DNA of 64,000 nucleotides, from NCBI GenBank assembly GCA_000004695.1, contig CM000153.2, positions 1,088,001 to 1,152,000 on the forward strand, written 5' to 3'. Of this stretch, positions 6,707-18,881 are shown piece by piece. This DNA comes from Dictyostelium discoideum (Eukaryota). Both the position numbers and the translations under genes were made by a program. Each line of letters begins with the position of its first letter. Positions within the stretch are counted from its first letter, which is position 1. The notes under the pieces are model-generated. The model was not told where the DNA came from and searched no databases. It was given only the letters and a program-made list of their open reading frames with translations.

Positions 6707-7472
6707 ATGAAAATTATAAAGTATTTTTATACTTTCATACTCTATTTTTTATTTTTATTTAATTGTTTGGCGTTTGTTAAAAGTGGTGACCTGGAATGTA
6801 AAAATAATTTATTATTAAAATATCAAGTATTTGCAAATACTTTGTGCGATTCAGCAGAAGTTAATACCACAACAATCACTTTTCGTGCAACTTGTATAAA
6901 TAATATTCTTTACACTTTGTAAATATCAACTTGAAGTAATAATAATAATAAAAATAATAATAATTAATAACTAATTTTAAAAATTAATTTAAAATAGCCA
7001 TATTACTCCAACTGCTAGCGCACCAAATGTTACATTGACTTATGATGATTTGAATTGCTTCACAGATCTTTCTGATATGTAATTATTTAAAATATATAAT
7101 TAATTATTTTTTTTTTTAAAATAAAAAAAAAAAAAAAAAAAAACATGGATTTTAATAGTGTACAATAATTAAAAAAAAAAAAAAAAAAAAAAAAGGGTTT
7201 TCACAAATGTTAGATTCAATGGAAATGCATTTGGACAGGAGAATCAACAACAGGTAGCAAAAAGACTTTATTTTATTAATTGTACATTTGAGTCTGGTGA
7301 AATTGGTGATTCCCTTTCAAAAAACACAACTCTAGTTTGGATTGAATTTAATGAGAATTCAAATTTAAAAAATATTTATTTTTTAAATATTAAACATTTA
7401 GAAACATTGTAATTATAATTTAATATTATTTCCTATGGCCTATAAGTTTCAATTTTAACTAACTTTTTGGTG

Positions 7473-7512
<40 letters not shown>

Positions 7513-10500
7513 AATAAATAAACTTTAATAGTATACTAACTAGAATAGGCGATTTGGCTAAAATTCCATATATTGATAATAATCTTCAAAATCCTTCATA
7601 TCATTTTAAAGAAATGTTTGTATAAATTAATATTATTATTATTAAAATTTTCTTTCCAAATATTAATTTCAGTTTGGAAAAAAAAAAAAAAAGAATATTA
7701 GTTACAGAACAATTAATGTCATTTAATGGTTTAAATTGTTCAAGAATGACTATTACACTTATAAATGCAACAGAACAACATAGTGGATTAGATTTTTTAA
7801 ATACCATTAATAGTATTGATGAATTGAATTTAGATTTTGGTGATAATTTAATTGCCTTTCCAGGTATAATAGGTTCAAACAATAATAAATTAAAAACTCT
7901 TTCAATTTCAGGTAAATTTAAAAAACCATCAATTATAGGATTAACTATTCAAGAAGGCCTTCAAGAGTTTTCAATTAATGGTGGTGGTGAATTATTTAAT
8001 ATTAATGGTGCTTTACCATTCTTAACTATTCCATCTTCATTAAAGTTATTTTATATTGCTGATATTGGTTTAACCACTTTTCCAACCTTTCCACTTAATA
8101 TTGAAACAATGTAAATATATATATATATATATAGTTTAATTTTTTTTTAATTTTTTTTTTAAATACTAATTTTAAAATTTTTTTTTATTAATTTATTATT
8201 ACTATTATTATTATTAAAAAAAACTATTAGATTAATTTATAAAAATAATTTTGGAGGCATTTTACCAGATTTGTCAAGTTATAAAAAATTATCACATGTT
8301 TCTTTAGCAGAGTGTGGTTTCACTGGTACAATTCCAGAAAGTTATTGTATGTTTACTGGTACTTTAAATAATAATTCACTTACTGGTTTTTGGCCCCAAT
8401 GCAAAATATGTTATTTTGATAATTTTGAAGAAAGTTTTGATGGTAATCCATCACTAGAGAAAGGAAATTGTGGTATGTATTATAAATTAAAAATAAAAAA
8501 TAAAATATATATGATTTTATATTAATATTAATATTAAAAAATTTAGAACCAGGATCAATTGTTCCAAATTTAGAATATTATAATGTTTCAAATGAAATAA
8601 CATTATATGGAGAGAATTTAGGCATTTTCGGTCCAGGTAATATTTATAATATAGGATTTAAAGTAATAAATAGACAATCATTATTTAAAGCAATTTGGAA
8701 TGAAACAGCCAATGGTATAATTCCAAATATTATTGAACTTAATTTTGGTGGTACTAATTTTAAATTAGCAACTAAATCTTTAAAACCAATAGTTCAATCT
8801 ATTACAAAGCTTGGTTCTAATTATGCTTTTAAAGGTGAAAATTTCTCTTATAATAAAGAACATTTTGAAGTTAAAATTGGTGGTGTACCATGTGAAATTA
8901 ATTATATTGCTTTTGAAATTATTAAATGTAGTTTCAAAACATCAATATTACCAAATAATGGTATAGATATCAAATCAACAATTCAAAATTTTAATATAGA
9001 TCAAATAATTTCATTCACTGTAAATACAATTGATAATAAAACAACAGATATTTTAACATGTGCATCTGAATGTCTTAATGGTGGTTTTTGTAGTTCAACA
9101 AGTGGTAATTGTATTTGTGGTGAAATATATAAAGGATCTGATTGTGCTATTTTAAAGACATGCCAAAACAATTGTATAGATTCAAATCATGGATATTGTA
9201 ATTATACAAGTGAAAGTTGTGTTTGCGTTAATGGTTGGTCTGGTAATGATTGCTCAACTATGGTTTGTACTTCTGATTGTAGTGAACCTTTAGGTAATGG
9301 AAAATGTGATACAACCACTGGAATTTGTAAATGTTCTCAACAATATACCAGTGATGATTGTAGTTTACCAAATCAATATATTTCATCAGTATCATCAGTA
9401 CCAACAAGCGGTGGTGTTGTAAATATCTGGGGTTGGTTTGGTACAATACATTCAGGATTATCAATTATGATTGATCAACAAGTTTGTCAACATGATGTTA
9501 ATTCAATTACTAGTAGTTTTATAAATTGTACAGTTGGTGCTGGTAGTGGTACACAATCAATTACTCTCACTCAAAATGGTATTACATATACTGGTAATAA
9601 TATGTTCCATTATACTGAATTAACATATAGTTGTCCAAAAGATTGTTCAAATAATGGTAAATGTAATACAAATACAGGTCAATGTAAATGTAATAGTGGA
9701 TGGGGTGGTTATGATTGTAATTCAAAAAAAACAACTCAACCATCAACATCATCATCATCATCAACAACAACTACAGCATCCTCTTCAACAACTGGTTCTA
9801 CTGAGACACCAACACCAACTTCAACACCAGTAGTTGAAATTCCAAAATCAAATACTACAATCAATGAAGATTTAGGTTCAGCAGTTATCAATAATCAACA
9901 GACAACATATGAAATTTCAATTTTATCATTAATTGAAACTGATTTTTCAAATAATATTGTAAATACATTTAATTTATCAAAGAAATGGACAGCTTCAGTA
10001 AGCACAGATAATATCTATAAATTTACTCAAACAATTCAAGAATCATGTAATATCACATACACTATTGAAGAGATTAAAACAGAAAGAGATTATCAATGGG
10101 CAGGTTTAGATTTAACATTGGATAAAGATTCAATCAAAATTTCAGTCTCAATTAAAAATTACACTTTTAATAGTGTTTTAAATAATCTTCAATTAAGATT
10201 TGAATCATTAGTAGGTGATAATAATAAAAATACTCAAGATAATAATGAATGTAATAATAAAGATACTCAAGTTGATACAAGTGAAATCGATAAAAATCAA
10301 TTATTAAATTATGTAACAATATCAAGAAATCAAAAAGTTTTATATGGTCGTTTCATTAATAGAGTTATTAGTGATTCAAGACAAACTTTTATAACAACCT
10401 CTGTAATTCCAAATAATAATAATAATAAACAATCAGTGATCATTGGATTAAATCTTCCACATTGCACGCATGAATGTTTAATTGATCCTGATTTCTCTGT

Positions 10501-16871: not shown

Positions 16872-16936
<65 letters not shown>

Positions 16937-18881
16937 CTAATTACTTTTCAAACTTTTAGATCCAGGATCAGGGGTTCCAAATTTAGAATATGAAAGTAGT
17001 TCAAAATATTTTGAACTTTATGGAGAAAACCTTGGTTTGGCTCCCCCAACCATTGAAAATCAAGCATTTAAAGATATAATCATACCAAATTCAAGATTTG
17101 GATATAGTTGGAATGAAGGGCTATTAGGACCAGTTCCAGATATAGTAAAAGTAAATATCTCTTCAAAAATCTATTTGATGGCTACCAAATATTTAACACC
17201 TCAAATAAGTACCATTACAAAAGCTGGTAATGATTTCACTTTTAGAGGTATTAATTTTTCTTATAACAAAAACCAATTTACTATAAAAATTGCTGGTGTT
17301 GATTGTGTAATAAGTTATATTGAATATGGTATTATAAATTGTAGTAATATCGATTCCGTTCCGTTAGGTCATTATGTTCCAGGTACATTGGAAAGTCAAA
17401 AATCAACAGAAATCATTACATTCTACATTAATACAATTGATAATAAAACATCTGACATTATTAAATGTAATTCTGATTGTAATGAACCTTTAGGTAATGG
17501 AAAATGTAATACTACCAATGGAATTTGTGAATGCACTCAACAATATACCAGTGATGATTGTAGTTTACCAAATCAATTCATTACATCAGTATCATCAGTA
17601 CCAACAAACGGTGGTGTTGTTGATATCTGGGGTTGGTTTGGTACAATACATTCAGGTTTATCAATTATGATTGGTCAACAAGTTTGTCAACATGATGTTA
17701 ATTCAATTACTAGTAGTTTTATAAATTGTACAGTTGGTGCTGGTAGTGGTACACAATCAATTACTCTCACTCAAAATGGTATTACATATACTGGTAATAA
17801 TATGTTCCATTATACTGAATTAACATATAGTTGTCCAAAAGATTGTTCAAATAATGGTAAATGTAATACAAATACAGGTCAATGTAAATGTAATAGTGGA
17901 TGGGGTGGTTATGATTGTAATTCAAAATCATCAACTGGTGGCGAAACTACATCAACATCATCAACCACAGGTACAACTACACCAACCTCATCACCAGTAA
18001 TTGAAATTCCAAAAACAAATACAACCATTAATGGAACTGATGGTTCAACTGTTTTGAATAATCAACAAACAACATATGAAATTTCAATTTTATCATTAAT
18101 TGAAACTGATTTTTCAAATAATATTGTGAATACATATAACTTGTCAAAGAAATGGGATCCTGTAAATATTACATCAAATAATATCTATAAATTTACCCAA
18201 ACAATTCAAGAATCATGTATTATCACATACACTATTGAAGAAGTTAAAACAGCAAGAGAATATCGATGGGCAGGTTTAGATTTAACATTGGATAAAGATT
18301 CAATCAAAATTTCAGTCTCAATTAAAAATTACACTTTTAATAGTGTTTTAAATAATCTTCAATTAAGATTTGAATCATTAGTAGGTGATAATAATAGAAA
18401 TACTCAAGATAATAATGAATGTAATAATAGAGATACTCAAGTTGATACAAGTGAAATCGATAAAAATCAATTATTAAATTATGTAACAATATCAAGAAAT
18501 CAAAAAGTTTTATATGGTCGTTTCATTAATAGAGTTATTAGTGACTCAAGACAAACTTTTATAACAACCTCTGTAATTCCAAATAATAATAATAATAATA
18601 AACAATCAGTGGTCATTGGATTAAATCTTCCACATTGTACACATGAATGTTTAATTGATCCTGATTTCTCTGTTTTGGTTTCATCATCTTATCAAGAATG
18701 TTCAAGTGATTTAAATAATGGTGGTCGTGCCAGTTGGGTATTACCTGTTGCTATCGTTGTACCTTGTGTTGCTGTTGTTTTAATCATTATCATTGGTTTT
18801 ATTTTATTTAAAAAGAATCGTTTGGCATTTTTAGTCGCCAAAAATAAGATGAAAGGTCTCAAATTAAAAGGATTATCATAA
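15072..18881 (+). CDS. Paralog C of the same family, about 8 exons: 15072-15292, ~15384-15475, ~15548-15656, ~15733-15874, ~15945-16025, ~16102-16515, ~16609-16859, 16960-18881
   Basis: Signal peptide MKSIFYYFYLLIFIVSLKLTIVKS. LRR exons match track ORFs 16142-16516 and 16628-16879. The large 3' exon matches ORF 17037-18881 and carries the same EGF, IPT, stalk, conserved domain and TM (VLIIIIGFILF KKNR) as A and B. Confidence 0.65.

Follow-up and report, generated by a model that had tools for sequence, protein, structure and literature searches.

We analysed a stretch of 64,000 nucleotides (nt) of Dictyostelium discoideum DNA (contig CM000153.2, positions 1,088,001 to 1,152,000 of the forward strand; about 20% G+C), hereafter the window. 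Three related genes lie head-to-tail on its + strand at 6707-18881. Using AX4 identifiers as gene names, gene A is DDB_G0283869, gene B is DDB_G0283853 plus an unannotated 5' half, and gene C is DDB_G0283787; the AX4 annotation describes all three as hypothetical EGF-like proteins. A cysteine proteinase 3 gene lies upstream of the triplet and an rRNA adenine dimethylase gene downstream. We found that the 5' halves of these genes are strongly diverged and their 3' halves nearly identical in places, a mosaic that points to segmental gene conversion within a tandem array of the ComC family.

Gene models

The final exon models were obtained by protein-guided splicing, with the ortholog of a wild isolate (P0006) as the guide for B. 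An unguided search for GT..AG splice sites was too permissive for A and gave no result for B, and the protein guide was used instead. From the ATG to the end of the stop codon, the genes and the spacers between them are as follows.

6707..10702, + strand: gene A (DDB_G0283869), 7 exons (6707-6918, 6998-7078, 7196-7408, 7532-7615, 7694-8110, 8231-8472, 8547-10702), 1134 amino acids (aa)
10703..11058: A-B intergenic spacer, 356 bp
11059..14810, + strand: gene B (3' part = DDB_G0283853), 8 exons (11059-11276, 11353-11433, 11549-11646, 11722-11845, 11934-12017, 12079-12486, 12575-12818, 12880-14810), 1062 aa after frameshift repair
14811..15071: B-C intergenic spacer, 261 bp
15072..18881, + strand: gene C (DDB_G0283787), 8 exons (15072-15292, 15391-15474, 15560-15657, 15734-15857, 15938-16024, 16102-16512, 16609-16856, 16960-18881), 1064 aa

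These starts and stops are exactly those proposed in an earlier reading of the letters without database searches (the sequence-only reading), which had put the spacers at about 350 and 260 bp. The spliced translation of A shows no mismatch to P0001, whose 90% cluster includes AX4 DDB_G0283869, and that of C none to AX4 DDB_G0283787 (P0005). The AX4 protein of DDB_G0283853 (P0010, 628 aa) maps to B 12927-14807 at 100%. Genes B and C have identical intron phases (2,2,1,2,2,2,1) and near-identical exon lengths. Gene A lacks their intron 3 and has the other six introns in common with them, so that the exon phases once thought to be shared throughout are fully so only between B and C. In AX4, the model of A (P0041, 1141 aa) differs solely at intron 4 (7616-7693), where it takes an upstream acceptor and adds LEKKKKR from a poly-A run; the shorter form given above is supported by orthologs and by the ACTFIT model. 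No promoter or spacer motif was found to be shared among the three upstream regions, which align through A/T runs only.

Domain architecture and family membership

The three proteins have the same domain order: a signal peptide, a leucine-rich repeat (LRR) solenoid of about 400 aa, two beta-sandwiches, an IPT/TIG domain flanked by EGF repeats (one before it, or three in A, and one after it), a Ser/Thr stalk predicted to be disordered, the ComC supersandwich domain (ComC_SSD or SSD), a single transmembrane (TM) helix and, at the end, about 25 aa of basic tail. Pfam, structure prediction and Foldseek thus bear out the type I architecture of LRR, IPT, EGF, Ser/Thr stalk and TM that had been read from the letters. 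The common domain order needs one amendment, since A carries two extra EGF repeats (9053-9259) and has four in total, against two each in B and C. The modules, all on the + strand and labelled according to the mosaic described below, are these.

6707..9052: A variable 5' module; signal peptide + LRR 6707-8551 (introns included), beta-sandwich pair 8552-9052
9053..9259: two A-only EGF repeats; a block of about 70 columns present only in A in the A/B/C alignment, with EGF_TEN and DUF7949 matches
9260..10546: A homogenised 3' module; EGF island 9260-9403, IPT2+EGF (putative conversion tract) 9404-9727, Ser/Thr stalk 9728-9889, ComC_SSD 9890-10546 (E = 1.8e-60)
10547..10699: A TM + short basic tail; gene-specific, beyond the putative conversion tracts
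11059..13373: B variable 5' module; signal peptide + LRR 11059-12884, beta-sandwich pair 12885-13373
13374..14642: B homogenised 3' module; EGF island 13374-13517, IPT2+EGF 13518-13841, stalk 13842-13979, ComC_SSD 13980-14642 (E = 1.2e-61)
14643..14807: B TM + tail
15072..17459: C variable 5' module; signal peptide + LRR 15072-16964, beta-sandwich pair 16965-17459
17460..18719: C homogenised 3' module; EGF island 17460-17603, IPT2+EGF 17604-17927, stalk 17928-18056, ComC_SSD 18057-18719 (E = 1e-62)
18720..18878: C TM + tail

Searches against Pfam, which had been proposed as a check on these assignments, returned EGF, TIG, LRR_ComC (A exon 5) and ComC_SSD matches. The juxtamembrane domain of about 220 aa, previously taken to be novel, matches PF22933 (ComC_SSD) over profile positions 2-222 of 222, with 204.8, 208.6 and 212.1 bits in A, B and C (cut-off 24). 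The match to PF24141 (LRR_ComC) reaches 34.9 bits with exon 5 of A alone (cut-off 27) and 13.8 bits with the C exon; B gave no match, and none of the full-length proteins was reported at E <= 0.01. No match to the hidden Markov models (HMMs) of the ComC beta-sandwiches (PF24142/PF24143) was found in A, B or C, and there is a weak TIG match (20.9 bits) on the second sandwich of A. In addition, the triplet proteins have EGF_2 and EGF_Teneurin matches and a hydrophobic N-terminus.

In BLASTP, A aligns to DDB_G0268314 with E = 1e-71 over aa 298-1114, that is, from the last LRRs to the TM helix, covering the beta-sandwich region. DDB_G0268314 (P0031) has the full Pfam ComC architecture, namely LRR_ComC, two ComC beta-sandwiches, EGFs, TIG and SSD, and its TIG-annotated region aligns with the IPT2 region of the triplet. 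Moreover, PF22933 is present in all 33 of the 33 homologs retrieved, none of which is named Tgr, and in the family alignment the SSD is the most conserved domain. Judged by these matches, A, B and C are ComC-family proteins, neither Tgr proteins nor a new architecture. The sequence-only reading had not recognised the family and had looked to Tgr-type receptors for comparison; the combination of LRR and ComC_SSD is not Tgr-like.

The ComC family is limited to dictyostelids (PMC4931340). Its member comC encodes a protein with signal peptide, TM and EGF domains, is confined to group-4 dictyostelids and is developmentally essential (PMC4931340). DDB_G0268314 appears in the same table as a developmentally essential gene for an EGF-domain membrane protein (PMC4931340, Table 3), and comC mutants show aberrant aggregation (PMC2873529, Table 1). 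Literature searches by gene identifiers, by comC and by concerted evolution in Dictyostelium found nothing on the three genes or on this locus.

An AlphaFold2 (AF2) model of the C protein was built on a 28-sequence family alignment. It predicts a solenoid followed by two beta-sandwiches (aa ~430-590), with predicted local distance difference test (pLDDT) scores of 85-95 over aa 20-590. After the sandwiches come EGF/IPT modules, a stalk without order (aa 748-777), the SSD as an all-beta fold and the TM helix (aa 1029-1043). Foldseek searches of the PDB with this model retrieved LRR ectodomains (LGR4/5, BRL3, NGL1, internalin A, TLR1/5/7/8) and, for the IPT domain, plexin and Met arrays and the EBF IPT/TIG domain at a root-mean-square deviation of 2.7 A. 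At ranks 4 and 7, the extracellular part of C also matched GLMP in its luminal domain; GLMP is a glycosylated type I protein that acts as an accessory subunit to a lysosomal transporter. This match may hint at a membrane-proximal beta-sandwich module that docks onto a multi-pass membrane partner.

Diverged 5' modules and near-identical 3' modules

Long blastn matches between the three units are confined to the 3' ~1.4 kb. They pair A 9266-10671 with B 13380-14770 (89.3%), A 9266-9727 with C 17466-17927 (96.5%), A 9806-10672 with C 17973-18848 (91.1%) and B 13323-14770 with C 17403-18847 (92.0%). The 5' halves match only via poly-A/T intron runs. Paralog identity and the number of synonymous substitutions per site (dS, Nei-Gojobori) were computed from the A/B/C codon alignment. 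The whole 5' module gave an nt identity of 0.53-0.57 and a dS of 0.83-1.11, against a dS of 0.06-0.16 in the 3' module, and divergence is therefore not uniform along the genes. By region, the values between paralogs are as follows.

Signal peptide + LRR: 33-39% aa identity, dS 0.99-1.15
Beta-sandwich pair: 46-51% aa identity, dS 0.54-1.01
EGF-IPT2-EGF block: 92-96% nt identity, dS 0.06-0.125
SSD: 92-96% nt identity, dS 0.09-0.16
TM + tail: 77-81% identity, dS 0.36-0.77

In sliding windows, tracts of 99-100% identity lie at alignment columns 736-810 and 946-1050. The first shared EGF and the Ser/Thr stalk stand out as diverged islands, as does part of the SSD at columns ~901-930. The near-identity once ascribed to the 3' ~1.3 kb as a whole thus holds for the tracts, and is interrupted by these islands and lost again in the TM and tail. 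Likewise, the divergence of the LRR exons is real, and it extends further than had been noted: its boundary falls inside the last exon, not at an intron, and the first ~165 codons of that exon are diverged as well.

Gene conversion between old tandem duplicates

We compared the window with the ortholog loci of two wild D. discoideum isolates (L001, GCA_054859385.1, and L003), of D. cf. discoideum (L002) and of a second assembly of the reference lineage (L004). The triplet has the same order and synteny in all five assemblies. Neighbour-joining (NJ) trees were built separately for the 5' and 3' modules of 22 proteins from D. discoideum, D. cf. discoideum, D. citrinum, D. dimigraforme, D. firmibasis and D. 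purpureum. On the 5' module, orthogroups A, B and C are each recovered in 100/100 bootstrap replicates; all three have members in D. discoideum, D. cf. discoideum and D. citrinum, and B and C in D. dimigraforme too. The triplication must therefore have happened before D. discoideum, D. citrinum and D. dimigraforme diverged. The 3' module behaves differently: neither the B nor the C orthogroup is recovered (0/100 replicates each), and the sequences group instead by species: D. dimigraforme B+C in 100/100, D. citrinum A+B+C in 65/100 and the discoideum complex in 63/100.

The 3' module is not simply slow to mutate, because its dS between orthologs (0.06-0.11) is normal or high relative to the flanking genes (0.04-0.05); it is about equal to the dS between paralogs in the same module. 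We also classified variable sites in quartets of two paralogs from two strains. Sites shared by strain are those expected from conversion, sites shared by ortholog follow gene descent, and the cross pattern is a control for homoplasy.

5' module: by-strain 0-5, by-ortholog 485-697, cross 0-5
3' module: by-strain 8-29, by-ortholog 27-69, cross 0-3
TM + tail: by-strain 0-1, by-ortholog 22-33, cross 0

The by-strain sites of the 3' module number 8-16 in pairs with wild D. discoideum and 25-29 in pairs with D. cf. discoideum, which calls for repeated events after each split. They lie at columns 724-819 (IPT2+EGF) and 890-1095 (SSD), and gene-specific sites cluster at columns 675-722, 831-884 and 918-925. 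A Sawyer-type permutation of the variable sites gave p = 0.0002.

The contrast between modules is found in every species, with about 0.35-0.44 aa identity in the N-module and 0.84-0.93 in the C-module. The adjacent D. purpureum pair DICPUDRAFT_155266/155267 (P0020/P0019, on one 50-kb contig) shows 0.37 and 0.93, respectively. Hence, homogenisation restricted to one module seems to be a general property of this ComC-like subfamily. D. cf. discoideum has a further ComC_SSD cluster on one contig (ACTFIZ_009069, 009070 and 009072; P0027, P0028 and P0030), which is about 36-39% identical to the 3' half of the triplet.

From the drop in dS, the trees, the quartet sites and the permutation, we infer that the mosaic is the product of recurrent, tract-limited gene conversion between old tandem duplicates. 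Outside the reach of conversion are the 5' half (LRR and beta-sandwiches, together with the introns there), the promoters, the TM and tail and, within the 3' module, the first shared EGF, the stalk and a short segment of the SSD; all of these evolve gene by gene. The sequence-only reading had left the choice between gene conversion and a very recent partial duplication; the former accounts for these results, and the latter conflicts with the 5' orthogroups.

A recent lesion in gene B

Contrary to the expectation of three intact genes, B carries a 1-bp deletion in the window.

12616..12649, + strand: frameshift site in exon 7 of B, where a base has been lost between 12634 and 12635 (ACAAA-CTAAC), giving an in-frame TAA at 12636-12638

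At this site the wild isolates L001 and L003 read ACAAACCTAAC and D. cf. discoideum L002 reads ACAAATCTAAC. The deletion is also present in the independent chromosome-level assembly L004 (15901-15934), which is otherwise near-identical to the window. B is thus disabled by this deletion in the reference/laboratory lineage only. The lesion explains why AX4 annotates only a 628-aa 3' fragment (DDB_G0283853) and why the 845-aa ACTFIT model of B (P0045) crosses the real frameshift with an implausible pseudo-intron of about 41 nt. Once repaired, B shows no second lesion in 1062 codons. Together with the low dN/dS (the ratio of nonsynonymous to synonymous substitution rates) of its LRR region, given below, this implies that the inactivation is recent and lineage-specific. 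The 3' half of B in the reference lineage still shares conversion-derived changes with C.

Two annotation features were considered and set aside. The split B models in L002 and L004 (173 aa + 845/855 aa) were rejected as further lesions, the split being located at the short 61-nt intron 5. A 1413-aa product of L001 (P0036, L001 3825-9676) was rejected as a protease-ComC fusion; the annotation appears to have joined cysteine proteinase 3 to gene A, which are separate genes in the other assemblies.

Evolution of the LRR heads

Selection was examined by comparing the reference with the two wild isolates, a set of three D. discoideum lineages rather than a population sample, and with D. cf. discoideum. 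The pooled flanking genes served as the background for the rates of nonsynonymous change (dN).

Flanking genes (pooled), reference vs wild: dN 0.006-0.010, dN/dS 0.14-0.19
A signal peptide + LRR, reference vs wild: dN 0.04, dN/dS 0.62-0.66
B signal peptide + LRR, reference vs wild: dN 0.03, dN/dS 0.23-0.26
C signal peptide + LRR, reference vs wild: dN 0.085, dN/dS 0.73-0.82
3' modules, between strains: dN/dS about 0.2-0.3

The LRR heads of A and C evolve fast. When replacement and silent counts were compared with those of the flanks by Fisher tests, the difference was significant for the C LRR (p = 4e-5) and the A LRR (p = 0.003), and not for B. The beta-sandwich/EGF region of A reached a dN/dS of 1.40 against D. 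cf. discoideum, with few silent changes. In the C LRR, replacements are modestly enriched on predicted beta-strands (odds ratio 1.7-2.0, p = 0.02-0.03), and a McDonald-Kreitman (MK)-type contrast showed a weak excess of replacement polymorphism (replacement to silent ratio Pn/Ps 2.67 for polymorphism vs Dn/Ds 1.51 for divergence, p = 0.043). This excess aside, the MK-type contrasts gave no significant sign of directional positive selection. No dN/dS above 1 was found in the LRR of A, B or C among the three lineages, and the signals do not exceed neutrality. On the LRR head DIVERSIFYING question, the ratios of 0.6-0.8 are only suggestive of diversifying selection on the A and C heads. The idea of a diversifying recognition locus consequently stands as regards the raised dN/dS of the A and C LRRs, and falls short in that these ratios stay below 1, that B is at 0.23-0.26 and that the MK-type contrasts are weak.

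Of note, over positions 1-30000 of the window, the two isolates behind L001 and L003 (ACTFIR and ACTFIW), which are labelled D. discoideum, stand at a dS of about 0.04-0.05 from the reference in the housekeeping genes of the flanks, and their intergenic sequence differs by 5-15%. This depth suggests divergent clades or cryptic species.

Other features of the window

Long homopolymers occur within and between the genes, namely about 58 A in C intron 7 (16876-16934), about 50 T upstream of C (14970-15020) and about 38 A in A intron 3 (7473-7510). Such runs account for spurious blastn matches between units and for length differences between assemblies. Two coding regions in the flanks, a 368-aa single-exon open reading frame (ORF) at 1062-2165 and an ORF segment by the rRNA dimethylase gene at 20412-20576, contain the long poly-asparagine tracts typical of Dictyostelium. 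No tRNA genes were found in the window.

Proposed model and alternative explanations

We are confident, though short of certain, that the locus is an old ComC-family tandem triplet for type I membrane glycoproteins, segmentally homogenised by gene conversion, with different heads on a common chassis. In this model, the IPT2+EGF block and the greater part of the SSD stay nearly identical among the three genes of a genome through recurrent non-reciprocal exchange between neighbours, and each gene retains its own TM, tail and promoter. The products would be three receptors with different LRR ligand-binding heads on a common membrane-proximal IPT/EGF and SSD chassis. The constant module probably fits one shared partner, for which a co-receptor acting in cis and the paralogs themselves are both candidates. 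Judging from comC and DDB_G0268314, the triplet would most likely serve cell-cell communication during development.

Several points weigh against this model. An A orthogroup persists in 35/100 replicates of the 3' module tree, and support for the participation of A in conversion at the level of the whole module is moderate. A footprint of GC-biased conversion was sought and not found, as neither GC at third codon positions (GC3) nor GC at four-fold sites is higher in the converted tracts than in the 5' module. NJ trees and Nei-Gojobori estimates are simple methods. The functional half of the model is argued from the domain architecture and by comparison with two characterised relatives, whose identity is only about 28-35%. 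Finally, conversion may persist mechanically only where identity is already high, an alternative not separable from selection for a constant module.

A different emphasis would see here a locus that diversifies for self/non-self or prey recognition: positive or balancing selection would act on the LRR heads, and the constant stalk would be no more than a by-product. Such a reading would extend the gene-conversion model rather than exclude it, and we consider it unlikely. The LRR dN is 4-8 times that of the flanks, with dN/dS of 0.62-0.82 for A and C, and the value of 1.40 in the A beta-sandwich/EGF region, the beta-strand enrichment and the polymorphism excess in the C LRR all lean towards it. 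However, dN/dS is below 1 for every LRR and ordinary in that of B (0.23-0.26), the comparison covers three D. discoideum lineages of which the two wild ones are at dS ~0.05 from the reference even in the flanks, and relaxed constraint would fit all of these signals equally well.

Relaxed constraint could also mean that the array is decaying, with 5' halves drifting toward pseudogenes, as the frameshift of B in the reference lineage and the high LRR dN/dS of A and C might suggest. We regard this as improbable. All other copies in the five assemblies are intact, with no internal stops in projected orthologs; synteny and copy number are conserved across species, and every module has a dN/dS below 1. 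The repaired B reading frame, with no second lesion in 1062 codons, makes the frameshift recent.

Two accounts of the near-identical tracts dispense with ongoing exchange. The first holds that the three genes received their 3' module from one source in a single event, a very recent partial duplication or replacement, which would suit the low paralog dS (0.06-0.16) and the 100% identity of some tracts. It is very hard to reconcile with the same mosaic in D. cf. discoideum, D. citrinum, D. dimigraforme and D. purpureum, or with the 3' module trees, in which sequences cluster by species (100/100 for dimigraforme B+C, 0/100 for orthogroups B and C). The second invokes very strong purifying selection on the 3' module, synonymous sites included, or a low mutation rate. 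Its low dN/dS between strains (0.2-0.3) and the conservation of the SSD across the family would agree with this. Nevertheless, the 3' module has an ortholog dS (0.06-0.11) no lower than that of the flanks (0.04-0.05), paralogs share derived changes within a strain (8-29 vs 0-3 homoplasies) and the tree topology switches between modules, and we give this account very little credence too. An assembly duplication artefact, as mentioned in the sequence-only reading, is practically excluded, as gene order and flanks agree among the window, three further assemblies of D. discoideum and D. cf. discoideum, and as the 5' halves are only 33-42% identical.

Segmental homogenisation of an old triplet by gene conversion thus remains our preferred explanation. 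The family is known and the evolutionary mechanism is of a known kind; this specific case appears to be undescribed. The locus offers a case of amoebozoan segmental concerted evolution that is clean and has well-defined limits, with homogenisation repeated independently in at least four species. It points to IPT2/EGF and SSD as the constant part of ComC-family proteins and to the LRR as the specificity part, and it provides domain-swap hypotheses for a family whose only members with phenotypes are comC and DDB_G0268314. On the practical side, the standard laboratory reference has a disabled B copy, which annotation splits or artificially rescues, and phylogenies or ortholog calls made from the conserved 3' half of these genes would be misleading.

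A bolder version, which we find rather unlikely, is that of a modular recognition-receptor cluster. Here, the A and C heads would be kept diverse by balancing or diversifying selection for the recognition of kin, mating types or bacterial prey, and conversion would be selected so that all three chassis dock one signalling partner. If true, this would be a 'variable head, constant stalk' system that evolved independently of animal TLRs and plant receptor-like proteins and is conserved across group-4 dictyostelids.

Comparison with known systems

The closest relatives are comC and DDB_G0268314, with which the triplet shares the domain order from signal peptide to short tail and an SSD match of E ~1e-61. 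Unlike in these relatives, the N-terminal half of the triplet proteins is far more diverged, to the point that the full proteins fall below the thresholds of the LRR_ComC and beta-sandwich HMMs. DDB_G0268314 also has more EGF repeats than the triplet proteins (two in B and C, four in A), and for comC no tandem array with segmental homogenisation has been described.

The allorecognition receptors TgrB1 and TgrC1 are type I surface glycoproteins of social amoebae with IPT/TIG folds, clustered paralogs and fast-evolving ectodomains. The triplet proteins resemble them in being type I, IPT/TIG-containing products of clustered paralogs. Tgr proteins are not known to have an LRR head or a ComC_SSD, both of which are present in the triplet; the separation is made by architecture, without direct sequence comparison. 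In addition, the triplet genes are arranged head-to-tail with separate upstream regions. In the Tgr family, alleles are extremely polymorphic and receptors match their ligands in pairs; in the triplet, polymorphism is raised (LRR dN 0.04-0.085 vs 0.006-0.010 in the flanks), with a dN/dS below 1 in a comparison of three lineages only.

The plant LRR receptor-like clusters Cf-4/Cf-9 (Hcr9) consist of tandem LRR-TM genes in which variable N-terminal LRRs set specificity, and their role in pathogen recognition has been demonstrated. Their C-terminal LRR and membrane-proximal parts are conserved, being kept so by sequence exchange between neighbours. A variable head on a membrane-proximal part maintained by exchange is thus what the triplet would have in common with Hcr9, which belongs to another kingdom and has a domain set without EGF, IPT or SSD.

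The mammalian TLR1/TLR6 pair offers the closest parallel in evolutionary pattern. These are also tandem LRR type I receptors whose N-terminal LRRs group by ortholog, and a delimited C-terminal region is closer between paralogs than between orthologs as a result of independent conversion in each species (Kruithof et al., 2007; PMC2077338). The authors read this as the co-evolution with shared partners that is needed while the heads diversify (Kruithof et al., 2007; PMC2077338), a reading akin to the one that we propose for the common chassis of the triplet. The proteins are unrelated, and the triplet comprises three genes instead of two. Moreover, the converted region of the TLRs includes the TM and the intracellular TIR domain, whereas that of the triplet is wholly extracellular, formed by the IPT/EGF block and the SSD.

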